Source: Rhizophagus irregularis
Lineage: Eukaryota
NCBI RefSeq assembly: GCF_026210795.1
Contig: NC_089429.1
Span: 4,526,001 to 4,590,000, forward strand
Reading direction: 5' to 3'
DNA: 64,000 bases
Part shown: one piece after another, positions 1,981 to 63,559 of the stretch
Layout: each line of letters opens with the position of its first letter
How positions within the stretch are numbered: the first letter of the stretch is position 1
Program-made: the position numbers and the translations under genes
The notes under the pieces: generated by a model
What the model saw: the letters and a program-made list of their open reading frames with translations, nothing else
Databases searched by the model: none
Told to the model about the DNA's origin: nothing

Positions 1981-1989
1981 TTATAAGAA

Positions 1990-4035: not shown

Positions 4036-5379
4036 ATGACGAGAAGCTATTCATTAGAAAAGGATTTAGAATTATTAATAAATAATCCAAAGTATAGTGA
4101 TATAGAAATTCTATGTAAGGATGAAAAGAAATTATATGGTTATAGAATAATTTAGCAGCAAGATCTAAAGTATTTGATGAACTACTTTATAATAAGATCG
4201 AAAAGCAAATTTCATTTCCAACTATCAATTCTTGTGGAATGGAAATTATATTAGAATATATTTATACAGGATCAATTAAAAAAAATTCTTTAACTGAAGA
4301 TAATATGATTGAAGCTTATAATGCTGCAAATTATTTTCAATTATTGATCCTTCGAGATTTTATAAATAAAACCATTAAAAAATTTTTAAACCACCAGAAT
4401 TCTTATCTAAACTTGTAGAAATTATGCCTTTATCAAAAGATAGTAATGTTCAACTTAACTTATTAGTCAAAGAAATAGCATCTACTTTATTAAATAATAT
4501 TGAAATTGGTCGATTGTCTATTAAAGCTCTTCAATATCTTTTATTTTGTACATATGAAAAAGAAATACCTTTTGCAACACCAGAATACGAAGTTTTTCGT
4601 TACAGGGCTATTCTTGTAGCAAAACAAGTTTCTAATGATGCGTATAACTCTGTTATTAAACATTTACCAACCTTAGAACAAACAGAAAACTCTGTACAGG
4701 TAGAAAATAAAATTATTGTTGATCATCAAAAAATTGCTAAAGAATTGGAGCCTTTGATCGAATATATTGATTTCAGGCGAATAGCGAATAAAAAGAGCAC
4801 AATTTGATTTCATTGAACCATTAAAATTATTCCAGCTGAAATAATTCAGAATCAATTGATTTAAACTTAAACAATGTTCGAGGAATACCAATTTATAGAA
4901 TTAAATAATCTGAACTTTATTGGGATGAGTCAGCATGCGGGTCAGGTCTCATTATTGAGAATAATGGAAAAGTTGTAAGAGCATCAAGATCAAGTAGTAT
5001 TAGTCCAATGGGAAGCGTTAGAGCTAAAGTAATATTAGAAAATAATGGTATTTATGAATGGGACGTTATTATTGAGAAAGAATGTATACGGTACAGTGTT
5101 GGAGTATGTGATTCAGAAAAATTTAACTATGGAGTCTTTGCAGGAGATCAACCTAATGCGTGTGTATTGGATTCATACGGTCTTTATCTTATTAATTTTG
5201 GAAATACCAAAATTACAGTTCATTTAGATATGAATAAAAGAACTTGCATTTTTACAATCGATGGTACAATGTATTCAGAAGTATCAACATGTAATAATTT
5301 ATCATCAAAGCTTTATCCAGTAGTATCATTGTATTATCCTGGTCGATTTCGAATTCAGTCTCATCAGAAAAGAATTTGA
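4036..5379 (+). pseudogene. BTB-SPRY pseudogene
   Basis: ATG at 4036 with the paralog N-terminus; frameshifts and stops break it into ORFs 4424-4807 and 5008-5379. Confidence 0.85.
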
Positions 5380-7981: not shown

Positions 7982-8486
7982 TGTTACTATCGATTTGCGT
8001 CAGGGTCACGTGATAGTAACGGAAATTCATGTCACGTTTATCGTAAAATAAAATGAAATAAAGTATATATGTAAAATTAAGAGTTATATGTATGATTTTA
8101 AAGTGTATATTTATTCAATGTAAATAATAACTTAAAATAATCAAGCAATACAATAAATAAATGCTAATACATAATAAATTCATAAATAATATCAGAATAG
8201 AATATTGCTGCCTCTGCCGGCGATCTGCAATATTACCGAATAAACTATACTAAAATTTAACACTAAATAAACCTTAATTATCCCCTATCCCCCACTGTTC
8301 GCCCGCTCTATATATATTGTTCAAAAATTCGGTATAAATTATACTATGTATAAGTTAAACTTCGTATAAATTATACCAAGTATAAATTACACTTAGTATA
8401 AACTATACAAAGTATAAGTTACACCATTACACTGCGGATCGCTGCTAATTTCTTGAACTTTCCATGTGGCACAGATCCGCGTAACA
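7982..8486 (-). repeat. 3' LTR (505 bp)
   Basis: Differs from 15363-15867 at 4 positions; preceded on the minus strand by PPT AGGGGGG (~8491-8497). Confidence 0.95.
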
Positions 8487-9136
8487 TCAGCCCCCCTAGA
8501 AAGGGTGAGCTCCTGCGAGCCCTGTATTAAGATCAGGGTTTCGGCTTCACGCAACTGGCGAGCAATCGGTAGTAATTGACCATAAAATTCGTCTTCCTTC
8601 ATTTGGTCAAGGTGATGTGGTCGTATATAGGTTACTGCATACAAATTAGCCAATCCTCTCGCCTGGAACAATTCGTATACACGCTTAGCCGTCTTCTTAA
8701 ATTCACTAGCGCCTTTATTGGTGCTGAATAACTCTCTTATTCGCCGGGCATCTTTCTTCTGCCATCCTCGTAGAGTTAGAACTTCCCCTAAATAATAAAA
8801 GGTCTCTATTCTATGTAATGTTTTTCGCCTATGGAAGGAGGGTTGTTGCGTTAAATGTAATAATGTTTCTAATCGTTGTTCATCATCCTGTCCTACATAA
8901 TCCGGTACAGGAATAGTTGTCACTCCTTCCTTTCGCAAATCCTCCACACATTTTTCCAAAACAGTTGCACAATTCCCAATAAAATCGTATAGATGAATTT
9001 CCTGTATTCCAAAATTATTACTGAAAAGGATCCGGTCAGAATCAATCGTAAGAACATCATTAGGTCGCCTTTCGTGTAACTAATGTTGTAGAAAAATCTT
9101 TAATTGCCGGATAGTTTTCTTAGAATATGTCTCCAT
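8393..9136 (-). pseudogene. extra retrotransposon ORF downstream of integrase, unknown function, one internal TAG
   Basis: ATG 9136 METYSKKTIRQLKIFLQH*LHERR... is in frame with the 188-aa ORF 8959-8393 and runs into the 3' LTR. Confidence 0.65.
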
Positions 9137-9237
9137 TTTTACGTCAAAATGACTCCATTCTGGCGTCCCTTTTATATTTTCCTATTTTTCTGGAAAATTG
9201 TAGAAGATTCATGTCGTATCCTGCATTGTTTGATTAC

Positions 9238-10503
9238 CTAATCGTCGCTGTTCACTCTCCTTTCAAAATATGGAAGGAGATGATTTGCGTTTACTAATTT
9301 CTTACGTAAGCGACCATCCATTGTCCGCAGCTTATAGGTTCCATTCGGTCCTATATCGTGTATGTAGTAGGGTCCGTTCCACTTCGGATCCAATTTCCTG
9401 GCCTTAAAATTCCGAAGTAGCACTCTATCGCCGATTTGTTATCGATGTGGGCGAACTTTCTTCCCATATTGCTCAACTTGTTTTTCTTGGGATCGGTGAA
9501 TATTTTGCTGCGCCTTGCGATGATCTTCTTCCAGTGGTCCAATTATCTGATATAGTCGCTTAAAATATGTTGCTGTAAGGTCTTCAACTTGTTCGGAACT
9601 ATCAGGTTGACTAGAGATTTGTAATTCAATCGGTATAGTAGCCTCTCTCCCATACATCAAATAGAAAGGCTCATAACGGGTCGTGTTCTGTCGCATGGTG
9701 CGATAGGCAAACAAGGCGGATGGGAGGTAGACGTCCCAATCCTGCTGATATTGGTCAGAATACTTGGCCAAAAGTTCGCACAAGGTCCGATTGAACCTTT
9801 CGACCAACCCGTTCGTCTGTGGATGGTAAGCAGTGGATAACCGATGTTTTACTCCCAGCCGATTACATAACGAATCCAGAAGTTCATTAACGAAATGAGT
9901 TCCTTGGTCAGTTAGGAGTTCCTTTGGGCAACCATGCCGACAAATGATATCGTCATAGAAAAACGGAACCACCGAAGCGGCCTTAGCATCTGGAAGGGCA
10001 CGAGCTTCCGGCCACTTCGTTAAGTATTCAGTGACCACGACGATATACCGATTTCTGGTTCGCGTTATTGGTAACGGTCCCACAATATCCATTCCGATTC
10101 GATCGAAGGGTCTTCCTACCTTGATGGGATGTAACGGTTCCGATTTTATTGGCGGTTTCCGTTTTTGACATATTTCACAGGTCTGCACATATTGTTTAAT
10201 ATCGTCTTCCATCTGCGGCCAATAGTACCTTTCACTAATGGTCCAATAGGTTTCATTAAATCCAAAGTGTCCGGCTAATGAATCACTATGGAAATTATAT
10301 AAAATCGGTTCCACCTCGCTAAGTCGAAGGACCCGCAAAGGTCTTTGAGGGTTCCGATTATTTTTCTTGTATAAAATTCCATTAATAGAACAATAGTGTC
10401 GAGCTTTGCTTTTGAAACTACGGATTTGTGTGGAATCCATCGTTTCTGGTAGAACGAGATCATTCAGATATTGTAATAGTTGGTAATATAGCGTAATATC
10501 CAT
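9238..10503 (-). pseudogene. Gypsy integrase (HHCC, DDE core, GPY), one internal TAA at 9441-9439
   Basis: H..GHFG..CEIC zinc finger, IGMDIVGP, LTDQG, GLVERFN, WNGPY. Confidence 0.9.
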
Positions 10504-10587
10504 GGTTGGGTTAGATCAAGCCGTAATCTGATAAGAGGTGTCGTCCAGAAATACAATCCCGGTAAAATTTTACGATTTTGTCAATTC

Positions 10588-13560
10588 CTAATGTATTCGC
10601 GATAGACTGTCGACGTTCGTATGTTTCTTGCCAGCGCGGTGGATAATCTTGAAATCGTAGGGTTGGAGTTTCATGACCTAGCGGGCCAATCTTCTGGTAG
10701 GAGTTGCCGAGTTAAAAAGATAACACAATGCTGAATGATCCGTTATAAGAGTAAATCGCTTTTCATGTACATAAGGGTGGAAGTGTCCAACGGCCCACAC
10801 AACCGCTAAACACTCAAGTTCGGTAGCCGAATAATTCCTTTCGGCTTTGCTCAATGTCCTACTTGCATATGCAATGACTCGCTCGAATTCGTCTTCGTCC
10901 TTCTGAGCGAGGATAGCGCCCAATCCCAAAGTTGAAGCATTCGTCAATAAGATGAATTTTTCGTCAAACTTCGGGTATGCGAGAATAGGCGCTTGAACTA
11001 AATGCGTCTTCAATAAGTCAAACGACTGTTGTTGCGCCTCAGTCCATACAAAAGGACTGTCCTTTCTTAATAACTTATTTAAGGGATTTGCGATCTTTGA
11101 GAAATCTTTGCTAAATCGTCGATAATAAGACGCTAATCCCAAAAATCCACGCAATTGGGTGACGTTCCGAGGTATCGGAAAGTTTTCCACCTTTTCGATT
11201 TTCGTGGGATCGGTGCATATTCCTTTGGAACTGATCACATATCCCAGAAACGATAGTTCTCTTTTTATGAAATAACATTTCTCGGGATTCAGTTTCAATC
11301 CGGCGTTCTTAAGTCGGTTGAATACATTCCTTAAATGTTCCAGATGTTTTTCGAACGTTGTTGAATATACGTTCAAATCGTCAAGGTACACCACCACGAA
11401 ATCCCATAGTATCCCCTCCAATATCCCGTTCATCAATCGCTGGAAGGTTGCCGGTGCATTACACAAGCCGAACGGCATCACCAGGAATTGATAGGTACCA
11501 TACTGGGTAATGAAAGCCGTTTTCTCTCTGTCCTTGGGATCAACTTCGACTTGCCAGTAGCCGCTGGCTAAGTCCAACGAAGTGTATTACGATACATGTC
11601 CTAAGGCGTCGAGCATATCGTCTATTCGTGGTAACGGATAAGAATCCTTTTTTGTGACTTGATTCAACTGACGATAGTCCACGCAGAATCGCATTTTCCC
11701 ATTCTTTTTCCGAACCAAAACAACAGGAGATGCCCATGCGCTTTTGGATTTTTCGATGAGCCCTTGCTTCAGCATCTTTTGGATTTCTTCAGCTATGAAT
11801 TGTTGTTCGGTTCGGGACGTTCGGTACCACTGTTGTCGAATCGGTTTAGCATCTCCGGTGTTGATCGAGTGATACACTAAATCTGTCCGACCCAATTCCA
11901 CAGTTGTCCAAGCAAACAAATCCCGATACTGTTCAATCAACTTCTGAAATTCATTCCGTTGAGTTTTGGTTAGTTCTCCAACATTCGGTAGCTTTGATTC
12001 TCCCGCAAAGATATCGGTAATTTCATTATGTAAAAAGGGTAACGCAACACTCCGTTTCCTTATCTTTCCGATTTCTTGCCTTCCACAATAATAACATCCG
12101 ATGGCCTGTTGCTCATGCAGAATCGCATCAACATCTTTCGGTGTAAATTCGACTGATTCGAGGTCTTGTGATCGTTGTTCCTTTGTAGGCGGTTCATTCT
12201 CTTCAGGCGTAACTATACTCATCGTGGTGACGATTTGTTCCGGGACATTTTTCACTGCCGTATATAAAGTAAAATCATTTTGGCAGGTTTTACATCCTCT
12301 TGCTTTACCACATAGGCAAAGACTTTTGCCTTCATTTCCACAAATTTCTTTTCGAGCTTTTTCCAATTGGAACTTTCCGTCTAAATATCGGTAATAATTC
12401 CAATGGTAGAAGCTTCTTTGCAAATAAAACCCTTGATTGATGAGAACTAGATCCCCACTCGTCGTACTATTTTCTTTTTTCAGTCCAGACGATTTACGTT
12501 GCTTTAAAGTATCCGTACTGTCGCTTTCGAACTGATAGCAACAATAAACCTTTTCTTCTAATTCTTCCTCTTCGTATTCATCGTCAGACTCTTCCTCCTC
12601 ATCTCCATCATCATCGTCCTCTTCCTCTTCACTTTCAACTATCCTCGCCTCTTCCTCTTTTTGTTTTATCATTCGTTCGTGCGGCATCATCCGATATTCA
12701 ACAGGGATTTCCACTTCTCGGCCTTGCCAAGTGAACAACAACGTCGATGCCTTATAGTTTAACTGGGCTTGCACTTTCGATAGCCAATCGTTACCTACTA
12801 TGGCACTATAAGATTCGGTATCGATTACTACCACGTTGATAAGAACAGTAACGCCACCAACGGTTATCGGAAAATCCAGCACTTCACCCAATGGCCGTTT
12901 CTTTTCCCCGTTGACGTTTATCATCACAATTGCAGATGGTCGGTCTATCGCAATTCCCAAGTCATTCAACAGCTGACAGGTAACAATACTACCAGCTGCT
13001 CCTGTATCGACAATTAATGGGATTCTTTTCCCTTTTATCATGGCGTCGCAATACATTGCTGTCGTACTTTGTACGTCCTGATGAGCGAATTTAGCGCTTC
13101 TAGTCATTGGTTTCCGTAAACTTTTTCCAACGTCGCTTCGAAGCTTTGGTGATATCTGAAATAGTTGTCCGAAGGTAATGTTTGCTCGTTGCTATTGTAA
13201 ATCGGCAACTATGTTGTACGGTGGTATGTGAGCAGCTATTGACGGCTGAACCTTCGGTGTTTTCTTTTTCCGCACCGTAGCCTTCTTCTTTTTAATTTCG
13301 GTAGCCTGTTCTTTCGCATTGACGGTCATCGGCTCTCCTTCGCCAACATTATTAGTCGTTTGGATAGGAATCGGTATTGGTGCATACTGAGGATCTTCAT
13401 GAGCATTTTCCTCTTCGATTATTTCTTTATTCGGATATGGAGTACTTCGAGTCTTTGGTCTATTCCTTTGAGCAGGGTAGGCTTGGAACAAGGTTACATA
13501 CGAGGGATTTTGAACGGGTTTCGCACCTTCGCCCTCCAAAGGTGCACCTCCTAGTTTAAA
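10588..13560 (-). pseudogene. Gypsy pol: aspartic protease, RT, RNase H (3 internal stops)
   Basis: IVDTGA protease; [32 protein letters not shown] RNase H. The three ORF pieces share one frame. Confidence 0.92.
13510..13560 (-). promoter_or_regulatory. -1 programmed ribosomal frameshift signal (U UUA AAC plus stem/pseudoknot)
   Basis: TTTAAAC directly before the gag TAG; GCACCTT/AAGGTGC stem 8 nt downstream; the -1 frame reads into pol. Confidence 0.8.
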
Positions 13561-15317
13561 GGCGCCGATTGTCCTTGCCCTCCCAATTGCTTCAACAGTC
13601 CTTGGAGCAAATTGGGATCAATATTTCCGGTTGGGTTGAAACCAGCCTTACCACCGGTAGTATTCTCCTTCTTTGGACATCGTCTGCTAATATGTCCAGG
13701 TTCCCCGCACGAGTAACATACTATTGGTGGTCTATCTGGAACCGATAGTTCTGGTCTCGCAGCAGGTGGTTTCCGATAACTACCAGACGGACGATTATCA
13801 ATTTTCTTCTCAATTTCGGAAACTTGTTGCGCCAACACGGTAACTAATTTCGTCAATTCAGCCATCTCAGACTTGCCGGTTTGTGCATAATTCATTATCC
13901 GGGGTCTTCCAGAATTCATCGTCAATTCGCAGGCCTTTGCTCGATTAATGGCGTCGGTCAACGTTTGATCTCCAAAGGGTTTCACCGCCATGTATAATTC
14001 TGGCAATAAGCCAGACACGAACTTCCGGGCTTGTACATTATCCGGGTATGCAAATACCGGCTTGTTGATTCGCTGGTATAATTCCCTGATTGCTGACGCA
14101 TATTGATCGACCATTTCGTTCGGTTGTTGTTGCCGTTGGTCCAACTCGGTGGACTACATTTCAACCAATGCAGGTGTTCGGAATTGCTGCTTGAACACAT
14201 GTTCAAATGTGTTATTATTCGCTGCTCCTCCCCACGCGTTTATAGGGTTGTTGACAACCGTTTGCCACCATACTGCGGCCGTTCCTTTCAGATAGGCGGG
14301 CACGACTTGCAATTTGCGTGCTGCATTCCATCCATTTGCTGCGCATGCGTTATTGAACTTGTTTAACCATGTAATCGGGTCTTGGTTTCCGCCATAAAAC
14401 GTCGGAACTGGTGCCGCTTGTACTCCCCGATTCAGCATTGCATTATTGTTAGCTGTTACCGCTGCGTTTAAATTATTTAACGCATTATTCACATTTTGCA
14501 TATTATTTCCGCCAACTCCTAACGCATTTGTCAAATTATTCAAGGCGTTAAGGAGCTGGTTAGCATTAGGCATTCCTCCAGCTATAGCCGCCATGTCTGG
14601 TTCTTCTGGTTCGTTGAATAAATTTTCTAAATATAATTCTTCGTCGGTATAGAGTAAACCAGGATCTGGTGCTTGAAATAGGAAATCTAAGTGAAGGTCT
14701 TCGTCGGTATAAAGTAATCCGGCTTCTTCTTCTTTAAATAAATTATTAAGGTAAAGATCTTCATTGATATATAGTAGCCCAGGCTCTGGTCCTATTAGAT
14801 CAAAGTTGATCTCTAAATCGGAATAGTTGGATGATCCAGTTGATAATTGTACAACAAGGGATTCTGAAGAATCGGTTAATACTTCAGATAATTCAAGTTC
14901 TTCAGTTTCACTAGTTGCTTCCAGCAGCTCTCCGTAAAAATCCTTCTCAAAATTATCGGTAAGGATACAAGCGTTGTATATCTCTTGCCTTAGATTGGTG
15001 TAAGGGCGAGGTATATCGGTATATCTTACAGTGAAAACCAGTGAATAGATAGCTTCCCAAAGATCCCGAATGGTAGGTGCGTCCGATAAATCCTCTAGTG
15101 CTTGTTGAGTATTACTGGTATAACTTCCAGTAGGATTTTCGGTTGAATACCAGTCCCAAAAGTTAACGAATTGTGGAGTATTGGGTCCAGGCGGGTAACA
15201 ATATGGACAGGAAAGATCACGATGATAATACTGAACTTGGATTATATTATTGTTTAAACGTGTATGCCAACGATCGTGTATAGTATTCTGTTGAAAGAAT
15301 AGGTTATAATCTATCAT
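13551..15317 (-). pseudogene. Gypsy gag with long N-terminal extension and CCHC knuckle; internal TAG at 14156-14154
   Basis: PTFYGGNQDPITWL capsid start; CYSCGEPGHISRRC; ORFs 15317-14154 and 14144-13551 are in frame. Confidence 0.9.
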
Positions 15318-15343
15318 ACAATAATCGGGTGGGTATCAAGTTT

Positions 15344-15359
15344 CTGGCAGAAGGCACCA
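15344..15359 (-). promoter_or_regulatory. primer binding site TGGTGCCTTCTGCCAG (possibly tRNA-His)
   Basis: TGG starts 3 nt inside the 5' LTR and is complementary to a tRNA ending ...GGCACCA; tRNA identity is a guess. Confidence 0.7.
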
Positions 15360-15362
15360 AAT

Positions 15363-15867
15363 TGTTACTATCGATTTGCGTCGGGGTCACGTGATAGTAA
15401 CGGAAATTCGTGTCACGTTTATCGTAAAATAAAATGAAATAAAGTATATATGTAAAATTAAGAGTTATATGTATGATTTTAAAGTGTATATTTATTCAAT
15501 GTAAATAATAACTTAAAATAATCAAGCAATACAATAAATAAATGCTAATACATAATAAATTCATAAATAATATCAGAATAGAATATTGCTGCCTCTGCCG
15601 GCGATCTGCAATATTACCGAATAAACTATACTAAAATTTAACACTAAATAAACCTTAATTATCCCCTATCCCCCACTGTTCGCCCGCTCTATATATATTG
15701 TTCAAAAATTCGGTATAAATTATACTATGTATAAGTTAAACTTCGTATAAATTATACCAAGTATAAATTACACTTAGTATAAACTATACAAAGTATAAGT
15801 TACACCGTTACACTGCGGATCGCTGCTAATTTCTTGAACTTTCCATGTGGCGCAGATCCGCGTAACA
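15363..15867 (-). repeat. 5' LTR (505 bp)
   Basis: Direct repeat of 7982-8486. Confidence 0.95.
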
Positions 15868-16509: not shown

Positions 16510-17130
16510 GAAAAATGATATTCCAGTGGCTTAGTAAAATAACTTATTTATCTCCGGTATCCGTACATAAAGCCCTTTAATATATACTTATTTTGACTAA
16601 TAATGATCTTTTTATTCCAATATTGCTTTTTACCCATCTTTTTAAATAAACACCACCCGTGAGAATATCAAGAAAAAAATTCACAAATTTTAACTAGGAA
16701 CCGTGGGATAACTTGTATTAAATACATACGAAACTAAAAATCATAATAATGTTTACAAATTGTTTAATTTGCTAACGAAGACTAGTATGGATTACTTTAT
16801 GGTGAGAAAAAATTGTCAATCATAAGGCGCAGCACATATTTTTAGTTTAACTGACACCAAAAAATCTGCCCAAAAAATTCCGCACAGGCCGGCACTATGC
16901 AGTAACACGTGAATAAACAGTAGTGCGTGACAAATAGGATTTTGACTAACCGAAAAAAATCTAAGTCCCTCAGATACTTATAGAAAATGGAAACACAGAG
17001 GGACGTGACACGTGTGATGAATAAATTTTACTATGTGGATTAATTTTTTAGTACAGTGTGACATAGTACAAATCGTACAAATAACCTTAAATCGATATTT
17101 TTTTTTTAAAAAAAAATTTTTTTACAAGAA

Positions 17131-18540
17131 ATGATGAGAGGATATTCATTAGAAAAAGATTTAAGATTATTAATAAATAATCCAAAATATAGTGACATAG
17201 AAATTTTATGTGAGGATGGAAAGAAATTATATGGTTGTAAAGCAATTTTAGCAGCAAGATCCGAAGTATTTAACGGATTACTTTATAATGGAATGAAGGA
17301 AAGTTATGAAAACAAAATTACTTTTCCAAATATTAATTCTTTTGGTATGGAGATTATTATGGAATATATTTATACGGGATCAATTAAAGAAGAATTTTTA
17401 ACAAAGGATAATATAACTGAAGCATTTTACGCCGCAGATTATTTTCAATTACCAGACCTTCAGGATTTTATTATAAAAGTTTTCAAAAATTTCAAAAATA
17501 TGTTAGAAAAATATTTTTCTCCGGAAATATTGTCTATATTTGCAGGAAAAATGCCATTAACAGAAGATAATATTCTATTAAATTTATTGGTTAAAGCGGT
17601 AGCTAATATTCCATTAAATACAATTGAATTCGATCGATTATCTATTAAAGGTCTTCAATATCTTTTATATTGTACACATGAAAAAAAAATTCCTTTTGCA
17701 ACCCCAGAATATGAAGTTTTTCGATATAGTGCTATCCTTGCAGCAAAACAAGTTTCTAACGATGCATATAAAGCTCTTATGGAACGGGTACCGACCTTAG
17801 AACAAATAGAAAACTCTGTACAAGTACTAGAGAATAAAATAATTGCTGATCATCAAAAAATTGCTAAAGAATTGGAACCTTTAATTGAATTTATTGATTT
17901 CAGACGAATTCAAGGTCTAATATTAGTTGATATTATTGAGCCACTAGAAATTGTTCCAACTAAAATTATTTTAAATGTATATCGATATAATACAAAATCA
18001 ATTAATTCCGATAGAAATTATATTCGAGGAGTACCCATTTATTTCAATTATATTTGGGATGATACAGCATGTGGATCAAAACTTATTATTGAGGATAATG
18101 GAAAAGTTATTTATGCACGAAATGATCTTGATTTACTCCATAGTGTTAGAGCTAAAATGATATTAGAAAATAATTATATTTTTGAATGGGATGTTATTAT
18201 TGAAAGAACTTGTAGTTGGTCTTGGGTTGGGGTATGTGCATCAGAAAATTTTGATTATGAAATTCCTGCAGGAAAACAATTTTCTGGATGGGTATTAGGT
18301 TCCAATGGTAATTGTCGTAGTTCTGGAGTTAATATAGGAAATTATTGCCCATCATTCGGAGATGGTACAAAAATTACTGTCCACTTAGATATGAATAAAA
18401 GAACTTGTGCTTTTACAGTCAACGGTACAAAGTATCCAGAAGTATCAACATGGGATAATTTACCATCAAAGCTTTATCCAGTAGTATCGTTGTATTACCC
18501 TGGTCGATTTCGAATTCAGCCTCATCAGAAAAGAATTTGA
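17131..18540 (+). CDS. BTB/POZ-BACK-SPRY protein, 469 aa
   Basis: Intact paralog of 1990-3411. Confidence 0.9.
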   Translation: MMRGYSLEKDLRLLINNPKYSDIEILCEDGKKLYGCKAILAARSEVFNGLLYNGMKESYENKITFPNINSFGMEIIMEYIYTGSIKEEFLTKDNITEAFYAADYFQLPDLQDFIIKVFKNFKNMLEKYFSPEILSIFAGKMPLTEDNILLNLLVKAVANIPLNTIEFDRLSIKGLQYLLYCTHEKKIPFATPEYEVFRYSAILAAKQVSNDAYKALMERVPTLEQIENSVQVLENKIIADHQKIAKELEPLIEFIDFRRIQGLILVDIIEPLEIVPTKIILNVYRYNTKSINSDRNYIRGVPIYFNYIWDDTACGSKLIIEDNGKVIYARNDLDLLHSVRAKMILENNYIFEWDVIIERTCSWSWVGVCASENFDYEIPAGKQFSGWVLGSNGNCRSSGVNIGNYCPSFGDGTKITVHLDMNKRTCAFTVNGTKYPEVSTWDNLPSKLYPVVSLYYPGRFRIQPHQKRI

Positions 18541-21827: not shown

Positions 21828-24800
21828 ATGGCTCAAAGTAACGATAAAGGTAAAAGCATATAACATGAGTATAGATATCTAATACAAATTGAAATTGCTC
21901 TAAATTTTTTTCAAACCAAATTTGCAACATAATGAAACTAGTTTCAAAAATTGAGAAAGATAAAGGTAAGAAAATTATTTAACAGCTTGCGAATTATAAA
22001 CATAATTTAAATTTTTTAAACTATTTCTAAATATTATTTTACTATATTAGCTCGTAAGTAATAGGTTATCTTATAATCGGAATGATAATTAATTAAATTA
22101 CTTATTTCTATTATTTTATATAACCAAATAATTCATTTTATTATTTAATATTATTATAGTTGGTAAGTTAATAGCTATTTTTTTTTTATTGCATTTTACA
22201 TGATATCTTAAATAACTAAATTTTCTATTAATATAATTACGATACTAATATCATAGGAAGTAAGTAATTAATTTTATATTAATTTAAAAGTATTTAAAGT
22301 ATTTATTTAATAATTTTAATAATATAGGGAGTATGTTTTTATTTAATTCCATTATATTTATATAATATTTACATATAATTTAAACTAACTAAATTCTTTA
22401 TTTAAAAAATTATTCAAACATTTTAGAACGTAAGTAATTCTATTATATTTATACAATATTTACATATAATTTAAACTAACTAGATTCTTTATTTAAAAAA
22501 TTATTCAAATATTTTAGAACGTAAGTAATTCTATTATATTTATATAATATTTACATATAATTTAAACTAACTAAATTCTTTATTAAAAAACCATTTTGTA
22601 ATTTCTTTTAGTTGGTAAGTTATAAGTTATTTATATAATATTTACATATAATTTAAACTAACTAAATTCTTTATTTAAAAAATTATTCAAATATTTTAGA
22701 ACGTAAGTAATTCTATTATATTTATATAATATTTACATATAATTTAAGCTAACTAAATTCTTTATTTAAAAAATTATTCAAATATTTTAGATTGTAAGTA
22801 ATTCTATTATATTTATATAATATTTACATATAATTTAAACTAACTAAATTCTTTATTTAAAAAATTATTCAAATATTTTAGATTGTAAGTAATTCTATTA
22901 TATTTTTATAATATTTACTTATAATTTAAACTAACTAAATTCTTTATTTAAAAAATTATTCAAATATTTTAGATTGTAAGTAATTCTATTATATTTTTAT
23001 AATATTTACATATAATTTATACTAACTAAATTCTTTATTTAAAAATTATTTATTAGGGAGTATGTTATTTATTTAATTCTATTATATTTATATAATATTT
23101 AAATATAATTTAAGCCAACTAAATTCTTTATTTAAAAATATTTTAGAATGTAAGTAATTTTATAATATTTACATATAATTTAAAACTAACTAAATTCTTT
23201 ATTAAAAAACTATTTTGTAATTTCTTTTAGTTGGTAAGTTATAAGTTATTTATATAATATTTACATATAATTTAAACTAACTAAATTCTTTATTTAAAAA
23301 TTATTCAAATATTTTAGAATGTAAGTAATTCTATTATATTTATATAATATTTATATTTAATTAAACTAACTAAATTCTTTATTTAAAAATTATTCAAATA
23401 TTTTAGGTTGTAAGTAATTCTATCATATTTATATAATAATTACATATAATTTAAACTTACTAAATTCTTTATTTAAAAAATTATTCAAATATTTTAGATA
23501 GTGAGTAATTCTATTATATTTATAGAATATTTACATATAATTTAAACTAACTAAATTCTTTATTTAAAAAATTATTTATTTAATAATATAGGATGTATGT
23601 TATTTATTTAATTCTATTGTATTTATATAATATTTACATATAATTTAAATTAACTGAACTCTTTATTTAAAAAATTATTCAAATATTTTAGATGGTAAGT
23701 AATTCTATTATAATTTACATATAATTTAAACTAACTAAATTCTTTATTTAAAAAATTATTCAAATATTTTAGAACGTAAGTAATTCTATTATATTTATAT
23801 AATATTTATATATAATTTAAACCAACTAAATTCTTTATTTAAAAAATTATTTATTTAATAATTTTAATAATATAGGGAGTATGTTATTTATTTGATTCTA
23901 TTATATCTATATAATATTTACATATAATTTAAACTAACTAAATTTTTATTTAAAAAATTATTCAAATATTTTAGATTGTAAGTAATTCTATAATATTTAT
24001 ATAATATACATATAATTTAGACCAACTAAATTTTTTATTTAAAAAATTATTCAAATATTTTAGATAGTAAGTAATTCTATTATATTTATATAATATTTAT
24101 ATATAATTTAAACTAACTAAATTCTTTATTTAAAAAATTATTCAAATATTTTAGATAGTAAGTAATTCTATTACATTTATATAATATTTACATATAATTT
24201 AACTAACTAAATTCTTTATTTAAAAATTTATTTTGTAATTTTTTTTAGTTGGTATGTTATAAGTTATTTATTTAATTCTATTATATTTACTATAATATTT
24301 ATATATAATTTAAACTAAATTCTTTATTTAAAAAATATTCAAATATTTAGATGGTAAGTAATTCTATATTTACTATATAATATTTACATATAATTTAAAC
24401 TAACTAAATTCTTTATTTAAAAAATTATTTACTTAATAATATAGGGCGTATGTTATTTATTTAATTCTATTATATTTATATAATATTTACATATAATTTA
24501 AACTAACTAAATCCTTTATTTAAAAAATTATTTATTTAATAATATAGGGCGTATGTTATTTATTTAATTCTATTATATTTATATAATATTTACATATAAT
24601 TTAAACTAACTAAATTCTTTATTTAAAAAATTATTCAAATATTTTAGATAGTAAGTAATTCTATTATATTTATATAATATTTATATATAATTTAAACTAA
24701 CTAAATTCTTTATTTAAAAAATTATTCAAATATTTTAGAACGTAAGTAATTCTATTTATATTTATATAATATTTACATATAATTCAAACTAACTAAATTC

Positions 24801-27800
24801 TTTATTTAAAAAATTATTTTGTAATTTCTTTTAGTTGGTAAGTTATAAGTTATTTATTTAATTTTATTATATTTATATAATATTTACATATAATTTAAAC
24901 TAACTAAATTTTTTATTTTAAAAATTGTTCAATTATTTTAGATTGTAAGTAATTCTATTATATTTATATAATATTTACATATAATTAACTAACTAAATTC
25001 TTTATTTAAAAAATTCTTTATTTAATGATATAGTCTGTAAGTTATTTATTTAATTCTATTATATTTATATAATATTTACATATAATTTAAACTAACTAAA
25101 TTATTTATTTAAAAAATTATTTATTTAATAATATAGGGCGTATGTTATTTATTTAATTCTATTATATTTATATAATATTTACATATAATTTAAACTAACT
25201 AAATTCTTTATTTAAAAAATTATTTATTTAATGATATAGGGCGTATGTTATTTATTTAATTCTATTATATTTATATAATATTTATATATAATTTAAACTA
25301 ACTAAATTCTTTATTTAAAAAATTATTCAAATATTTTAGAACGTAAGTAATTCTATTTATATTTATATAATATTTACATATAATTTAAACTAACTAAATT
25401 CCTATTTATATTTATATAATATTTACATATAATTTAAACTAACTAAATTCTTTATTTAAAAAATTATTTATTTAATAATATAGGGCGTATGTTATTTATT
25501 TAATTCTATTATATTTATATAATATTTACATATAATTTAAATTAACTAAATTCTTTATTTAAAAAATTATTTTGTAATTTCTTTTAGTTGGTAATTTATA
25601 TGTTATTTATTAAATATATAATATTTACATATAATTTAAACTAACTTAATTCTTTATTTAAAAAAAAATTATTCAAATATTTTAGATGGTAAGTAATTCT
25701 ATTATATTTTTATAATACTTACATATAATTTATACTAACTAAATTCTTTATTTTAAAAATTATTTATTAGGGAGTATGTTATTTATTTAATTCTATTATA
25801 TTTATATAATATTTAAATATAATTTAAACTAACTAAATTCTTTATTTAAAAATATTTTAGAATGTAAGTAATTTTACAATATTTACATATAATTTAAATT
25901 AACTAAATTCTTTATTTAAAAAATTATTTACTTAATAATATAGGGCGTATGTTATTTATTTAATTCTATTATATTTATATAATATTTACATATAATTTAA
26001 ACTAACTAAATTCTTTATTTAAAAAATTATTCAAATATTTTAGATAGTAAGTAATTCTATTATATTTATATAATATTTATATATAATTTAAACTAACTAA
26101 ATTCTTTATTTAAAAAATTATTCAAATATTTTAGAACGTAAGTAATTCTATAATATTTACATATAATTTAAAATTAACTAAATTCTTTATTAAAAAACTA
26201 TTTTGTAATTTCTTTTAGTTAGTAAGTTATAAGTTATTTATTTAATTCTATTATATTTATATAATATTTGCATATAATTTAAACTAACTAAATTCGTTAT
26301 TTAAAAAATTATTCAAATATTTTAGATAGTAAGTAATTCTATTTATATTTATATAATATTTACATATAATTCAAACTAACTAAATTCTTTATTTAAAAAA
26401 TTATTTTGTAATTTCTTTTAGTTGGTAAGTTATAAGTTATTTATTTAATTTTATTATATTTATATAATATTTACATATAATTTAAACTAACTAAATTTTT
26501 TATTTTAAAAATTGTTCAATTATTTTAGATTGTAAGTAATTCTATTATATTTATATAATATTTACATATAATTAACTAACTAAATTCTTTATTTAAAAAA
26601 TTCTTTATTTAATGATATAGTCTGTAAGTTATTTATTTAATTCTATTATATTTATATAATATTTACATATAATTTAAACTAACTAAATTATTTATTTAAA
26701 AAATTATTTATTTAATAATATAGGGCGTATGTTATTTATTTAATTCTATTATATTTATATAATATTTACATATAATTTAAACTAACTAAATTCTTTATTT
26801 AAAAAATTATTCAAATATTTTAGATGGTAAGTAATTCCATTATATTTATATAATATTTACATATAATTTTAACTAACTAAATTCTTTATTTAAAAAATCA
26901 TTCAAATATTTTAGATGGTAAGTAATTCTATTATATTTATATAATATTACATATAATTTAAACTAACTAAGTTCTTTTTAAATTATTTTGTAATTTCTTT
27001 TAGCTGGTAAATTATTTGTTATTTATTTAATTCTATTATATTTATACAGTATTTCATATAATTTAAACTAACAATTCTTTATTTAACAAATTATTTTGTA
27101 ATTTTCTTTAGCTGGTAAGTTATTTGTTATTTATTTAATTCTATTACTATATTTATGTAATATTACATATAATTTAAACTAATTAAGTTCTTTATTTATT
27201 AAATTATTTTGTAATTTCTTTTAGCTGGTAAGTCATTTGTTATTAAATTCTATTATATTTATATAATATTTACATATAATTTAAATTTACTAAATTCTTT
27301 ACTTAAAAATTATTTTGTAATTTCTTTTAGTTGGTAAGTTATAAATTATTATATACTATTATTTAAAATTAAATTAATTAATTATTTAAACTATATTAAA
27401 TTTTTATAATTTTATTTAGAGTAAGTATAATTAATATTGTTTAATATTTAAATTTTTAATGTAAATTTTATTTAAATTTTAATTTAATATAATTTCATTT
27501 TATACTTAAAGAATTGTTACTAGTGGAAGTAAAATTATGGATCAATTTATTTCTGAAAATAAATTAAAATGGATTTCTTATGATAAATTTAAACATATTA
27601 AATATCTTGATAAAGGAGGATTTGGTATTGTATATAAAGCTAAATATAAAGCTACTAAGTATAAAGATATTAAAGTTATTCTTAAATATTTTGATTATCT
27701 TAATAATTCAGATGAAAGTTTAAATGAAAGTTTAAATGAAGTATGATTAAATATTATCTTTTTTTTAATATTATAAATTATTTATACCTAATTTACTGAT

Positions 27801-30155
27801 AAATATTATTTTTTATAGTGGAAAATTATTGATTCATATGAAATTATTAGAATATATGGATTTACAAAAAATCCAGATACTTTGAATTATGTATTAATAA
27901 TGGAGTATAGAAATAAGAATAGTTTAAAAAAATGTTTAACAGAAATAACAAAAAATTGGGAACAAAAATTATTTTGTTTATATCAAATTATTAAGGGACT
28001 TAATGATATTCATGAAGAAGATCTTATTCATTATAGCTTTCATAATGGTAATATTTTATGTAACAAATATGAAGAAAATATATATGGAATTTTTATTAGT
28101 GATTATTTAGGATTATATCAACTTGCAAAATCTTTTTTAAAAGCAAATGATATCTATGGAGTTTTACCATTTATAGCACCTGAAATTTTAAAAGGTCAAC
28201 CCTATACTCAAGCTAGTAATATATATAGTTTTTCTATAATTATGTGGGAATTTACATCTAAAATTCTACCATTTAATGATAAAGCACATGATATTCAGCT
28301 TGCTTTAAGTATTTGTAAAGGTGAACGTCCTGAAATTATTGAAAATACTCCACAATGTTATATAGATTTAATGAAAAAATGCTGGGATGAAGATCCATTA
28401 AAAAGACCATCTTCTAAAGAAATTTTAAATATTATTGAAAATTGGATTTTTCGTCCTGAGAATAAGAAAATTGAAGATATTAATGAAGAATTAAAAAGCA
28501 ATATTATGGAATTTATAAATGCACCAATTGAGCATCTTATTGTAGAATCTCATCCAAAAGCATGCTATACAAGTCATTCACTTGGTTTTACTAGTAAAGA
28601 ATTAATTGAAAAACTAATTCTAGAAAGCCCTCAGGTATTTCTTGAACTATATCAAAGTTCTCAAAATGAATTACAAAATATTCAAATTGAATTAGTTAAT
28701 TTACAACAAAGAAATTCTCGAATAGAAGAAGAAATTCTTAAGTTAGAAAAGATTGCTGAAACTTATTATCAAAGTTCTCAAAATGAGTTAGTTAATTTAC
28801 AACAAAGAAATTCTCAATTTAAAAATCAATTAATTCAAACAAAAGAAGAAAAACTCAAGTTAGAAAATGAATTATTTGATTTACAACAAAGGAATTTTAA
28901 ATTTGAGCAAAATAATCAAAATCCGAGGCTTAAATTTGCTAAACAGATTAAAGAATTTGCAAAAAAAGAAAATGTTTTACAAACCCAAATTATTGATCTA
29001 CAAAATGAAAAGCAAAACTTAGCTGGCAATTTAACTGAACAGTTGGGACAAAATAAACTAATTAACCAGCAAGTTCAAGATCAAATCTGCCAGTTAAAGC
29101 AAGAAGAAACTAAATTGCAAGAAAAATTATCTCAAATAAAAGCTAATATTCAAGAATTAAAATCTTACAAAGAAAGCTTAATTGAACAAAAAGAGCAATT
29201 AGAAAATAGATTAAATCAGTTTCAAGTTAATTATGAACAGATAGAACAAGAAAAGATCAGATTATACAATATGGCAGAAGGACTTTCACAAGAACAGAAG
29301 CAAACAATTAAATTGAAAATCAAGTTTGAAAAAGAAATTGCTCAATTGGAACAAAATTTGATTATTGAAGAACAAATCAAAATGCAATTAACTCAAGCTT
29401 TACAGATTAAAGTTGATAAAATAAATGAATTAGAACAAAAACTTATTAACCTTGATCAAGAGCGTATTAAAAAATTACAAAATAAAAGAAAAGAATTGAG
29501 TGAAATTGAAAAGGAATTATTAAATAAATTAACTAGTGGGAAAAATACTAAAGAAATTCATAAAGAAGAAGCTAAACAAAAAGAGATAAATGAACTCCAA
29601 CAAGAATTATCAAGAACTTTAGCTTCTTATAATATCAATAGAAAAAAACAGGTTTTCAATCAAGTCAATAATTTTTTGAAAGTTAAGGGTGATTTCCTAA
29701 CTTTACGAGAAGAAGCTATTAAAAAACTACAAAATTGCTGCAATCATCTAGAAAGTTCTATTAATAAAGAAAGAAATACTATTGGTTCTAACAGAGATAT
29801 GAAAATCTCAAAATTGACTGATAAATATACTAAAAAATTTCAAAGTATTCTTGTAAAATATAATGATGGATTGTTAGAGTTGAACAAAATTTATTATTCC
29901 TTAAAGAATGTTATTCAGAAAAATAAAGAGTTGGAAGTTAGCCTCATGATTGAAAATATTCTTAAGTTGAATTCTTTCAATCTTGATAAATACAAAATTT
30001 TTAAATTTGCTACTAATTCTCAGGAAGGAACCAGAATTCAATTAAATTCTAATATGATGGAAGAAGATATAAATTCATTAAGAAAGAATTTGAATGAATT
30101 GAAATTAGAATTAAACCAAGAAAAAAAAGAATCAAAAAATTTAGCAACAGTTTAA
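21828..30155 (+). CDS. micro-exon-array gene: variable N-terminal peptide, TKL-type pseudokinase, long coiled coil
   Basis: Model: 21828-21849, 21942-21965 (or ATG 21932-21965), 56 x 3-nt exons from 22051 to 27333, 1-nt exon 27420, 27512-27740, 27819-30155. All introns are GT-AG and the joined frame is open. Confidence 0.7.
21966..27511 (+). repeat. tandem array of 58 intron units (71-144 bp spacing, typically ~95) separated by micro-exons
   Basis: Unit: GTAAGT/GTATGT - tattatatttatataatatttacatataatttaaACTAACtaaattctttatttaaaaaatt - TAG, then 3 variable nt. Confidence 0.92.
27512..30155 (+). CDS. kinase-like domain plus ~500-aa coiled coil (exons 27512-27740, 27819-30155)
   Basis: TSGSKIMDQFI, KGGFGIVYKA, VILK, YGFTKNP, HYSFHNGNIL, PFIAPE, GERPEI, CWDEDPLKRP; Q/E/K/L heptad-rich tail. 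Confidence 0.9.
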
Positions 30156-39631: not shown

Positions 39632-42600
39632 ATGTCTTTACCTAATAATAAAATTATTAATAAATTAAATTATCGAAGAAGGAAGAATAAACGCAGTAGT
39701 TTTAGAAATAATCTGACCTTCTTAAGTCCCAGAGATGATCAAAGTGATATGTTATCATGTGCCAAAAATGATCCTCTTTCCAAAAAGGAACGTTATCAAA
39801 TCGAGATTTGTCAGGATGGTAAACTTGCTGTAACATTTGATACAGGTAAAAAATTCATTTGAAAATTTATAAATTGTGTAATGTTTGTTTATTATATTAT
39901 TAATGGAGTAACACAAAGCAGCCTTGAACTTTAGACCCCTCTCCTTTAATTAAAGTAACTCCTTTTTTCTTTTTTTTTTAAAAAAAAAGCAAACCTTCGG
40001 ATTAGAGTATTAGATAATACAGATCATCGTCAATTCGGATTATCTAAAAAAACGACTACTTCAGAACATAATACAAACAATCAGAACGATCAGGGTGAAG
40101 AAGAAATTACTAAAACAATCGCTTATTTCAAAATAAACGAAAATTTGGATATTGCCAAGTTCTATGACCAATATGATACTCTATGCACTAATCGAGAAAC
40201 TGGAATTGACGTTAATGATGATACGGACAAAAGATATAGATGGGGTTTAGATATATCAAATATACAAAATTATTATCAAGACAAATATTTTATCTTTATT
40301 GCTGTATCCCGCATAGATGTTAGTGAGGATATGAAAGGAAAAGTGAATACTGATACAAATTTTGATTATAAGAAAAACACTATAAAAAAAAGATATGAAA
40401 GAATTAATGAAGATTTTAGACTTGATCTGTCAGGAACATCATACTATAGTAAATCAAATGAAACTAAAAAAGGAACAGCAGTTTACCGTCTTAAGCTAAT
40501 AAAGGAAAATAACAACTTTATTCTTGATTTGTGTCCCGTAACTTATTATTATTCTGGTAGCGTTTCAGGAATATGTAAATTTATACAAAATTTTGATGAT
40601 CGCGATATCGATCAAAATAATTATACTTTAAAAAGATTTGTAGTATTGAACTTTAATGGAATATATAATTTTGAGTATGATTTTGATTATAGAAATCTTG
40701 ATTTAAATACAAGATTTGATTATCCAAAAAGTATTGAAAATGAATTACAACATTGGCATAAAGAAAATTTGGAAGATTGTATGGATAAGCTTCTTGCATG
40801 TCTTTATGATCAATATTTCTTGGTCGAACAATATAAGAATAATGTACAGGCGCTTGAAGGTAAAATATCATACATAATTAATATTATTTATTTTATTATA
40901 ACATATTTTGAATTTATATTAACAAAAAATTATAGTTTATGATCTGGCAGACATGAGCTTAAAAACTACTCCAAAAAGAGTCGAAAAAGATAAGCACGGT
41001 AGAAAGTTTAATCGCAATACTTTTTCAGTCAGTAAACTACAAATTTGTTTTACTCGAGGAATTAATTCTGTGAAGTAAGTTTGTTTTGAATTGTTCGATT
41101 TTGTCATTACTTATTCATTTATCATTTTTTTTATTCGAATCAAATTATCTATTAGATTGTACTTAATGGAGAATGGTCTGGAGGTCGTATCAAAAAAATT
41201 TGGTGAAATAGAAAAAATTCATTCGCTAGAATTCATTGATAGTGATGAAAAATTACTTATAATGGGTGAGAAAAAGAATCAGGTGAAGCTTGTGATCTGG
41301 GATATCTATAATACTGTAGAGGCCACACCGATAACATTAGAAAATTTTTCTATCGCAGATCTTGGCAATCGTTTGGCTAGAACTTCAGGAAATATTTTAC
41401 ACGTTGATGAAGTTGGAAAGGTTATATCAGTTCTTAAAAAAATCGAAAATAAATTAAATAAAAATACACCAAAAGATTCAAAAGGAATTTTTGAAAAATA
41501 TACACATTCAAAATTAGGTGAAACCCCGGATGGAAAAGCGGATGAAAAACATACGATACATTATGATAAAGGATTTGAACCGATAGTTATTGATAAAGAA
41601 CCTTGGGTGATGGATGAGTATGAAAGAAATTCTTATTGTCTTTATCAAAAGAAAGAAAATACAAGAATACAAACTTTACAACTTATAGTTGGCAGATCCA
41701 CGGTTCAAATTTGGCATCAAGTCCGTGATGATAGTAAGTCTAAAGGTGAACTTTCTAAACTTCCTAACAAAGGAGGTCCATTTCTTGAATATATATGGGC
41801 GAATGGTATTCCGATAAATCAAGAAAGGAAATCAACAAGATTAAGAATTGGAGAGTTCAAATATAAACCAAATGATGGATCAAGCCATATACCAGATGAT
41901 TTTTTTTTGAAAGTTTATTGGTATGAAAGAGCTTCAAATGTAAATTACAAAGGGAAAACAGAAGAAGAAATTAGAGAAATTGAGGAAGAAGAAATAAAAA
42001 AAATGGAACGTAATAGAAAAGAGAGAAGAAAGGATGAAATTATGGAAAAGGATGAGGATGAAATTATGGAGGATGAAATTATGGAGAAGAATGAAATTAT
42101 TATGGAAATGAAGGAAAAAGTAATTCAACGGAAAGATATTATTGAAAAAGTTGGTGCGGTAAGACGCGCTTGTAAAGCATTGGAACATCTTAATAAGCGC
42201 AGAAGTTTTCTCGTGACTAATTACATTAAAATACATCAAGTAGGTTGATTATATTCATTGTTTAAACTTTTTTTTAGGAAAAATGGAAGTTAATTAAAAT
42301 TTCTTTTTAATTAAAAGCATGAGGAAATGATAATGTATATTCAGCATATAGTCTGGAGGTTTGCTAAATTTAAACCTGAGGAATTTAAATTGTTAGACGT
42401 TCGACATAACGTCATGAAAAAATTAATTCTTGGTGATTGCAATCATTTAATAAAACTTATTTTATTTGGAGACAAAAGTAATAAGGATGATGAAAATGAA
42501 AATAAAGAGGAATTCGTAATCAGACATATACCAAGGAGTGTGTCGTGGCCAGGAAAAAATTTTATAAGTGATGATGACCTCCGATTTGATAATAATGGTC

Positions 42601-45113
42601 TAGGACTAGAAGATAATGATGAAAGGCCAAAAAATGATATGGAATTAGCAATTTATCGTTACAAAGGTAAATGAAACTTATGGCGTAGGTTTATAATTTA
42701 TATCATTGATTAATAATTTAATTTTACCTATAGGTCGTGAACTTAAAGATACTGTTGTTGTCGCTTATCTCTTGGAATATTATTCTAGTCATGCAACAGA
42801 TTATGCTGGTTGGATGAGTACTGTGTCTAAGGCATTACCATTATTATTTAAATATAACTACGGTTCGTTTTTATTTTTCATTCAACACTTCAATAGGATC
42901 TATGATATTTACAATTTTATTTTATAACACAGATGATTATGCCAGAAAGCTATTTCGTAAAGAATGTTTTGCGAATCAAGATTATTTTTCAGCACAAGAT
43001 CCTTATAATATTATTCCAATAGAATACCAAGCGAAACGTAACAATAACATTAAATTTAGGGCATTTAGAATAGACAAACTGCAGTCCGACGAGTATAAAT
43101 GGTATAATAGAATTGGAAAATTATTTGATCCTTTTAAAAAAACGTACAAATTTCTTGAAGATTTTGATAATTACCTTGAGAAGTCGCCTTTAGCTTTAAG
43201 AGTTGTTCCTCTTCCAGAATTTACCATGAACAGAATTCCTCAGAAAAATATAGAACACAATTATAGATTAAAAATTGTTTTAAATATTTTTTTGTTCTTA
43301 TTTATACCACGATGGTACCAAATTAGTCGAGATAAAAAGAAACTGTTAAGCCCTTTTTCTAGGGTGGTGCGATATGAGAATGATGATGATATGTATGACA
43401 ATCCAGCAACCGAAGCGGTTATTGATTTTCGTTGGCAACAAGCGAGAAATTTCTTTTTCTTCCTTTTTCTTCGATTTCTTGTTTTTGCCTTTTGTTTCAT
43501 AATTATTAGCTGGGAATATTTAAATCATGAAGTTATAAGTTGGAAATTTCGAAATTTTTTAGTTGCATTAATTTTCATATTTTATTATTTAGCAGCATAT
43601 TTATTCATTACTGAATTAATACAGTTGTATTTTCACGGACCTAGAAAATATTTTGGTGATATATTTAATAGTTTTGACATATGTTCCATTTTACTTCCCG
43701 TGATAGTAATGTCAATAATGCTTCGAGATTTTGAATTTTCTGATGGCTTTGCAAGTGTTAAATCAATTGATATGGGATTGATGGTGGGGACATCATTCTC
43801 TATTTTCTTCCTTTGGATCGAATTTGTAAGGTTTTGTTTTACAATTTTTTTTTTCTTTTAAATATAATATAATATTAACATGTGATTTTTAATAATTTAG
43901 GTTTTATATCTCCGCTTAATATCAAGTAAATATAAAATTCAACTTTATTTTAAAAAAGTTCATTATTATCAATTAATAATTCATTATTTTTTATTTTTAT
44001 TTTTAATCTATTAGAAATAGCCAAATATATTTATTATGTTATATATATCATCAAAAACATATTCCCATTTATTTTGTTTATGTTCATTGTAACAATTGGA
44101 TTTGCGCACACAATGTATAATCATTTCAATTTTTTTTTTTTGATATCATATTTATTTTAATTTAATTGATAACAATTTTTATTTATATCTAGGTTTATTT
44201 TACTTAAGGACCCTAATAATCCTAAAATTAATGTAAAATTGGATACATTAAGTGGAACTGCTACAAGTATAATAAATGATGATGAAACATTATTTAATAT
44301 TAAACTTGAATCTGATTATGATGTTAAAGATAAGAATGATAATCCATTTTCATCCTTTTCTACGGCAATAATGGCTGCATATTTTTGGTTGAATGGTGAT
44401 ATGGTTCAAAGAGATCATTTTGACTTTTGGGTTATTGATTTATTTACTTTAATTGCTAGTATTTTTATTGTAACTGTTTTGCAAAATATGTTGATTGCTT
44501 TCATGGGGTAAATTATTATTATTAGTATTATTAATTTATAAATACTATTTTATTTATTAATATTATTTATTTATTTTATTTTAGTGGAGTTTATGAAAGA
44601 GCAGAAACTAATGGAAGACAATCTTTATTAAGATTTAGAGCAAATCAAATAGCAGATTATGAAGCATTAGAACATTTTCATTTTTGGCCTAATGAACCTG
44701 AACCAAAATATATTTATTATATTGGACAATCTAAAAATTTTCAAGAATGGTATCAAAAAAGAAAAGATGATCAAGGTGAAATTTATAAAGATTTTGAGGA
44801 AAAATCTACAATTATTACTCAAACTTTTAAAGATGTTGATTTTGATGAAACTTCAATTTGGAAATTTGATGATGATAATAATAATTCATCTGATAATATT
44901 AAAGGTAAAAAGAAAGAAGTTTCTACCGATTCTACTGATTCTATTGACTCTATTATAGAATTATCAGAAATAATGGAAGAAAAAAATTCTCAAGAAAATT
45001 TTTTAAAAGAAGTTGATAAAAGAATTAATGAAATAAAAAAAATGAGTGATGATATTCATAATTTATTTAATGAAATATGTATAAAATTTAATAATATACC
45101 AAAAAACTTATGA
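39632..45113 (+). CDS. TRP-like cation channel, multi-exon (~11 exons)
   Basis: GT-AG exons join in frame where checked (39632-39845, 39990-40859, 40936-41074, 41156-42239, 25-nt exon 43901-43925, last exon 44585-45113); NPATEAVIDFRW, TM helices, pore FSTAIMAAYFWL, S6 VTVLQNMLIAFM, LRFRANQIADYE. Confidence 0.8.
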
Positions 45114-63471: not shown

Positions 63472-63559
63472 CATTGACATTGACATTGACATTGACATTG
63501 ACATTGACATTGACATTGACATTGACATTGTCACTGACATTGACATTGTCATTGTCATT
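63472..63559. repeat. (CATTGA)n microsatellite, ~14 copies
   Basis: Read directly. Confidence 0.95.

Follow-up and report, generated by a model that had tools for sequence, protein, structure and literature searches.

Can exons of a single codon each, lined up by the dozen, be spliced one after another into the transcript of a kinase gene? The question is raised by a 64,000-nucleotide stretch of the Rhizophagus irregularis genome (contig NC_089429.1, positions 4,526,001 to 4,590,000 of the forward strand), referred to here as the window, in which a row of 56 three-nucleotide exons and related introns lies upstream of a predicted pseudokinase gene. The last ten of these exons and a one-nucleotide adaptor exon are spliced onto the kinase exon. 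The row as a whole probably codes for a variable front segment of 57 residues, which likely serves a fast-diversifying recognition role. The exon chain is as follows.

21828..21849, + strand: predicted first coding exon, ATG at 21828, 22 nt, leaving phase 1 (from the sequence and a GT donor at 21850)
21942..21965, + strand: predicted second coding exon, 24 nt, phase 1 retained (TAG and GTAAGA borders)
22051..27333, + strand: 56 three-nucleotide exons with 55 related introns between (scan for TAG + 3 nt + GT)
27420, + strand: adaptor exon of a single nucleotide (A), bringing the kinase exon into frame (TAG-A-GTAAGT in the DNA; in the loose end of a contig; adaptors at related loci)
27512..27740, + strand: kinase N-lobe exon, containing an internal ATG at 27537 (contig with 0 mismatches; weak Pfam PK_Tyr_Ser-Thr match; public protein P0001)
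27741..27818, + strand: ordinary GT..AG intron, observed removed (joint 27740 to 27819 in the X2 contig and in X22 and X23 reads)
27819..30155, + strand: last exon, with kinase C-lobe, long coiled coil, and C-terminal helical bundle (778-codon open reading frame; contig covers 27819-28333)

Structure of the array

Units of the array were defined by their splice signals, namely TAG, three bases, and GT. The motif scan recovers all 56 triplets of the original prediction, an earlier reading of the window from its letters, at the same positions and in the same order, and all 56 of 56 exons are symmetric, their length being a multiple of three. Between 21820 and 27620 the AG-N3-GT arrangement occurs 69 times, versus 4, 1, 0, 1, and 2 times for spacers of 0, 1, 2, 4, and 5 nucleotides, bearing out the exact three-base gap that had been claimed together with a unit-to-unit spacing of 71-144 (introns of 68-141 nt). 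Spacers of 6 and 7 give 10 and 54 counts, mostly AG-N3-GT sites re-read to the second GT of GTAAGT. Beyond the array, the same scan of both strands of the window returned only three isolated three-nucleotide hits. The donors are, as had been described, mostly GTAAGT (40) or GTATGT (13), with three others (n = 56), and the branch-point motif that had been called usual, CTAAC, is found in 41 of the 56 units at no more than 70 nt from the acceptor, mostly 38-43 nt upstream. The statement that nearly all G bases sit in these signals has to be reduced to most of them (208 of 259, or 80%). The introns have a mean identity of 84%, and 47 of the 55 are distinct.

Because the array is a tandem repeat, its 56 sets of signals are copies rather than 56 independent observations, and because they are copies the splice signals of the window alone prove little. 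A neutral AT-rich satellite or an assembly artefact, in which the splice-like motifs would all descend from one ancestral junction, would show the same AT content of 87-90% and the same head-to-tail organization, for which Tandem Repeats Finder reports a 91-nt consensus. The array shares this tandem arrangement with a non-coding satellite, but it contributes to spliced sequence: joined triplets free of introns are present in the contig described below, contradicting the satellite explanation already for the last ten units, and diverged arrays lie at the same place and in the same phase on independent metagenome contigs. A satellite or artefact is accordingly scarcely credible.

Two side observations concern the units themselves. 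In eight of them AG-NNN-GT can also be read at an offset of four bases, and the triplet ends in C in 15 of 56, creating a CpG with the G of the donor, a base that no donor lacks.

Splicing of the terminal micro-exons

Four runs of the 24 listed (X2, X4, X22, and X23) were aligned to window positions 27482-28500. The X2 run, classed as RNA by the tool's guess only, yields a contig of 923 nt at a depth of 12.9 that matches 27512-27740 and 27819-28333 with 0 mismatches, the intron between them having been removed; removal of the same intron is seen in one raw read of X22 and three of X23. On the 5' side of 27512 the contig carries 179 loose letters, of which 30 are visible, and all 30 equal the join predicted from the coordinates, namely the final two bases of unit 47 followed by units 48-56 and the one-nucleotide exon. 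This 30-letter join is absent from both strands of the window and from all 80 related loci considered below, and its distance from every + strand 30-mer of the window is 13 mismatches or more. Because the 30 letters equal the predicted join, eleven consecutive introns were removed in the X2 molecule, and the last ten triplets and the one-nucleotide exon are thus spliced onto the kinase exon. Even if X2 were DNA this conclusion would be left intact, since a spliced DNA copy implies the same splicing.

The search of read data for concatenated micro-exons that the original prediction had proposed therefore succeeds for the last ten triplets and the A, and its claim of micro-exon splicing holds from the last two bases of unit 47 to unit 56; for units 1-46 and the first two exons we infer inclusion. 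The loose length of 179 would fit 56 x 3 + 1 + 10 nt of exon 2. One further joint in the raw reads, from 28058 to 28309, was set aside as a paralog artefact, its ends being non-canonical and one of its sides 21 letters long.

Reading frame and related loci

The 22-nt and 24-nt exons lead into the array in phase 1, in which each codon would be split, with its first base at the end of one exon and its remaining two at the start of the following exon. In this phase the joined array contains no stop, and it is open into the kinase only with the one-nucleotide exon at 27420, in agreement with the in-frame claim of the original prediction. Stop-freedom of the window array alone has P = 0.031 versus shuffled exon order, and a stop would arise at 59 of the 1540 possible skip joints (3.8%).

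Relatives of the kinase found in a metagenome scan numbered 282, and the best 80 were kept. Evaluable loci number 39 of these 80; left out were 32 without the start of the N-lobe exon, eight with less than 150 nt upstream, and L020, a duplicate of L014. Judged by the kinase, the metagenome contigs presumably come from arbuscular mycorrhizal (AM) fungi. At least one three-nucleotide unit is found in 28 of the 39 evaluable loci and at least two in 21, and the detected units are exactly 3 nt long in 110 of 117 cases. Most of these arrays extend to the end of their contig, the longest having 17 (L076) and 20 (L079) detected units. Among the nine loci with at least 800 nt upstream, five pass the unit rule, and L051 shows six units by eye with a long last intron. 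The array-bearing arrangement spans kinases 45-90% identical to that of the window, and within a locus intron identity is 73-88% and intron length is not constant, but the AG, the GT, and the three-nucleotide size are preserved.

The phase-1 reading of the original prediction recurs at these loci. The array is in phase 1 in 27 of the 28 loci (26 of 28 under a second, looser acceptor rule), the exception, L038, having a single unit and a 200-nt gap. Of these 27, 22 join the kinase exon directly in phase 1; the other five, as in the window, have an adaptor (here 1 or 4 nt) and a kinase exon opening in phase 2. Stops in phase 1 occur at 0 of 79 junctions versus 4.3 expected (P 0.003), and with the window included at 0 of 134 versus 7.3 expected (P 2e-5). 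Phase 2 contains 16 stops in 79 versus 14.5 expected, which is chance level. Phase 0 was rejected as the coding frame, being out of frame with the ATG exons and the kinase and containing three stop triplets, all in L079.

The similarity between metagenome and window introns is 0.71, against 0.62 in a shuffled control, a weak sign of common origin for which the shared motifs appear more telling. Some units at these loci depart from the usual signals: GC donors (GCAAG, GCAGG) occur at about 1101 and 511 in L079 and at about 1055 in L051, and one L079 unit has TG-G in place of the TAG acceptor and is possibly dead or non-canonical.

Growth and variability of the array

Block duplications were located by exact-word diagonals, and the largest pair is the following.

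24742..25224, + strand: four-unit block, 483 nt, exact copy of 26329-26811 (0 mismatches)
26329..26811, + strand: second copy of the four-unit block

Exact copies of a 220-nt three-unit block are also present. Because exact multi-unit copies exist, the array expands by duplication of units and of blocks, and the 483-nt duplication is apparently recent. To compare the triplets with their surroundings, the flank sites were split in two: one half served to pick pairs of units with near-identical flanks, and the other was held out. Triplets differ by 0.38 per site versus 0.04 in the held-out flanks, a ratio of about 10 that never fell below 4.4 in 200 splits, and diversity is 0.67, 0.62, and 0.76 at the three triplet positions against an intron-column mean of 0.16. 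In keeping with these values, the triplets may be under diversifying selection, and a recognition role of the segment is plausible.

The same growth might have taken place without benefit. An array that is spliced yet useless could have spread by slippage and unequal crossing-over, its frame-keeping additions being tolerated as a dispensable linker from which selection removes only stops and broken sites. Such an origin would account for the exact multi-unit duplications and for the lack of an array in some related kinases, and the 15 of 56 triplets ending in C before GT could mutate fast as CpG without selection. All three triplet positions are variable, however, beyond the CpG position; the arrangement has been kept across the whole identity range of related kinases given above; and a predicted 58 introns would be excised from 5.7 kb for 215 coding bases. 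A useless linker is therefore considered unlikely, and a variable coding segment is preferred.

The host kinase and its public model

The last exon matches Pfam Pkinase (E 1.5e-26), and only kinase domains were detected, with no NACHT or ankyrin. Its matches belong to the tyrosine-kinase-like (TKL) group, for example CTR1 and RIPK4. In the alignment to CTR1, Ser replaces the Asp of the catalytic-loop HRD and DYL stands in place of DFG; with Ser at the catalytic Asp the kinase is a predicted pseudokinase, as had originally been proposed. Among homologs the HRD Asp position is D in 43, N in 25, and G in one (69 of 120 matched by the pattern); the 120 homologs listed are Rhizophagus, Funneliformis, or unnamed JGI proteins. 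The predicted protein has about 925 residues, about 57 of them in the micro-exon segment, the remainder being kinase and coiled coil. Its full-length predicted model is poor (predicted local distance difference test, pLDDT, 57) and matches kinases only. The C-terminal 189 residues are modelled as a helical bundle (pLDDT 84.5) with no match in Pfam or Foldseek at E 0.001, and the idea that the bundle is a cell-death domain, finding no Foldseek match at that threshold, is without support.

The best homolog, P0001 (OCT59_000931, Rhizophagus irregularis), is 100% identical over the aligned parts and begins at ATG 27537, downstream of the array, so that annotation has missed the array as the original prediction expected. 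In the region of about 28048-28366 the P0001 model drops most of the kinase C-lobe as an intron; the X2 contig reads through to 28333.

Many homolog models likewise start at the Met equivalent to 27537, and exons 1 and 2 are absent from the displayed portion of the contig. Both facts would suit an arrangement in which splicing places the micro-exons in a 5' leader, kinase translation begins at ATG 27537, and the array acts through the RNA, on timing or abundance. Stops are avoided in the kinase frame only, however, the phase is held in 27 of 28 loci, and adaptors of 1 or 4 nt restore it. Because conservation of frame, phase, and adaptor would be purposeless in an untranslated leader, this arrangement is disfavoured and we regard it as very improbable.

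Translation of the whole row into a front segment remains the preferred reading, and a number of observations weigh against it. The public model P0001 and many others start past the array, and the in-frame ATG 27537 could initiate a kinase without the segment. Direct support for splicing is one contig from one run whose RNA status is guessed, and the loose length of 179 is by itself compatible with skipping or retention farther upstream. X4 contributes no sequence at the 5' end of exon 27512-27740. In the raw RNA runs X22 and X23 most reads come from paralogs, identity of at least 99% being reached by 21 of 867 and 31 of 1049, and no loose end at 27512 is found among their alignments listed. 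No skipped isoform appears in the 30 visible letters of X2, which represent one contig, and contigs lose rare variants. The P values for stop avoidance make the result look more certain than it is, since neither the units nor the loci are independent of each other and the units were found by their signals. Three loci (L043, L063, and L066) have more than 1 kb upstream and no array, which is thus not obligatory. Among the 287 proteins examined no phase-1 array peptide could be confirmed. Four Rhizophagus proteins (P0062, P0096, P0100, and P0104) have N-termini rich in Ile, Leu, Met, Gly, Asn, and Val (0.83-0.93 versus a median of 0.53 for the 287 proteins), and these are hydrophobic and of the phase-0 type instead of the phase-1 type.

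We read these four as gene models that probably took arrays in the wrong frame; P0062 opens with the second exon (21942-21965) in a different frame. A start of the MAxxN[DN]K type, resembling the first exon, is present in eight of the 287 proteins. In P0097, P0123, P0124, P0156, and P0177 a first exon of this type is followed by acidic repeats of about eight residues, which corresponds in length to the 24-nt exon 2 of the window; this may be another type of small-exon array at the same position. The P0062 and P0067 models join array-like N-termini to a coiled-coil part and have no kinase, which suggests that the module precedes non-kinase genes too.

Proposed mechanism and role

The row grew as an intron-plus-triplet unit was duplicated in tandem, one at a time and in blocks. 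Translation is predicted to start at 21828. Because the exon length is a multiple of three, gain or loss of a unit preserves the frame, and because the array is read in phase 1, each duplication, loss, or skip would write a new residue at the joint. Splicing would most likely proceed by intron definition, the short, strong introns being removed singly from 5' to 3'; given this order, the upstream exon would never be merely three bases long. The likely role is that of a fast-diversifying interaction or recognition segment of an expanded kinase family. A diversity-generating recognition module is plausible in view of the hypervariable triplets and of the Tuber precedent described below. Diversity may arise only between genes and strains, or also through exon skipping within the cell.

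The latter route can be carried further. In AM fungi the arrays could form a splicing-based generator on a large kinase family, in which split-codon exons are skipped combinatorially and one nucleus produces a repertoire of N-terminal peptides, each skip making the segment one residue shorter with a new residue at the joint. The repertoire might serve in telling self from non-self, or in sensing endobacteria, viruses, or plant signals. We regard this extension, including its uses, as a tentative possibility with the odds against it.

A candidate is thereby provided for how AM fungi generate recognition diversity. The spliceosome joins across at least eleven consecutive introns around three-base and one-base exons, and likely across 58, so that the order and limits of micro-exon splicing become directly testable in a model symbiont. 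The finding suggests that repeat masking of the arrays, or their reading in a wrong frame, has left many kinase N-termini of AM fungi mis-annotated.

Comparison with known systems

The work on microexons in nank genes of Tuber is reportedly that of Iotti et al. 2012 (Fungal Biol 116:261). Passages of four later sources describe the NACHT-ANK (nank) genes of Tuber melanosporum as containing multiple or tens of codon-sized microexons that are alternatively spliced (PMC4986451, PMC10197012, PMC13449251, PMC3689799). Novelty had therefore been claimed too strongly in the original prediction, although these passages concern neither a kinase nor the Rhizophagus lineage. As far as those descriptions go, both cases involve a mycorrhizal fungus, an expanded gene family (here, 21 of 39 evaluable related loci with at least two units), tens of three-nucleotide exons, and microexons in a spliced transcript, in Rhizophagus the last ten triplets and the one-nucleotide exon. 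Unlike nank, the Rhizophagus gene codes for a predicted pseudokinase of TKL type that has a coiled coil but neither NACHT nor ANK, and the fungus belongs to a different phylum. The N-terminal position, the conserved split-codon phase, and the adaptor exon of 1 or 4 nt also set it apart from nank as described at second hand. Alternative splicing is a feature of nank as cited, whereas the Rhizophagus array is known from the visible join of one contig. As far as is known from such accounts, the array works like the Tuber system and, its host not being a NACHT-ANK gene, is not a member of it. A device cited in these passages for Tuber NLR genes only is now extended to another phylum and protein class. 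What is new here is Rhizophagus, the pseudokinase host, the splicing evidence, and the family-wide phase rule.

Schistosome micro-exon genes (MEGs) likewise contain many tiny symmetric exons, whose skipping keeps the frame; most of these are longer than one codon, and they form most of a small secreted protein. The Rhizophagus exons, by comparison, are all 3 nt long, are set among duplicated introns that are nearly identical, and lead into a kinase of cytoplasmic type, of whose approximately 925 residues they would code for only about 57.

Fungal NLRs with repeats of high internal conservation (het-d/het-e WD40 type) are described in part of PMC13449251 as having units shuffled by duplication and loss, with few hypervariable positions. 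There, according to that account, the repeat unit is protein-coding, whereas the conserved part of the Rhizophagus unit is intron and only three hypervariable bases per unit reach the mRNA. The Rhizophagus genome paper (PMC10234402) reports an expansion of tyrosine-kinase-like kinases, with 2,533 kinase genes, in the portion considered. The downstream exons of the window belong to these expanded kinases, and the matching public model begins past the array. The passages of that paper on exons, splicing, satellites, and tandem repeats make no mention of such arrays. No description of micro-exon arrays in Rhizophagus or Glomeromycotina was found in the literature searched, and subscription papers and supplements could mention them.

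Other features of the window

A retrotransposon-like element with stop-broken open reading frames lies at 8332-15805 on the - strand, bounded by identical short repeats (8332-8424 and 15713-15805); its reading frames are presumably gag, protease, reverse transcriptase, and integrase. A cluster of related BTB-SPRY genes, seven or more in number, lies at 1987-5379, 17110-18540, and 47267-58960, with Pfam BTB and SPRY in the one tested. A multi-exon gene with several hydrophobic segments at 39959-45113, one scanned piece of which has no Pfam match, resembles an ion channel of TRP-like type. At 61683-62480 a 185-nt unit is repeated 4.4 times in tandem, and at 63472-63564 CATTGA is repeated 15.5 times.

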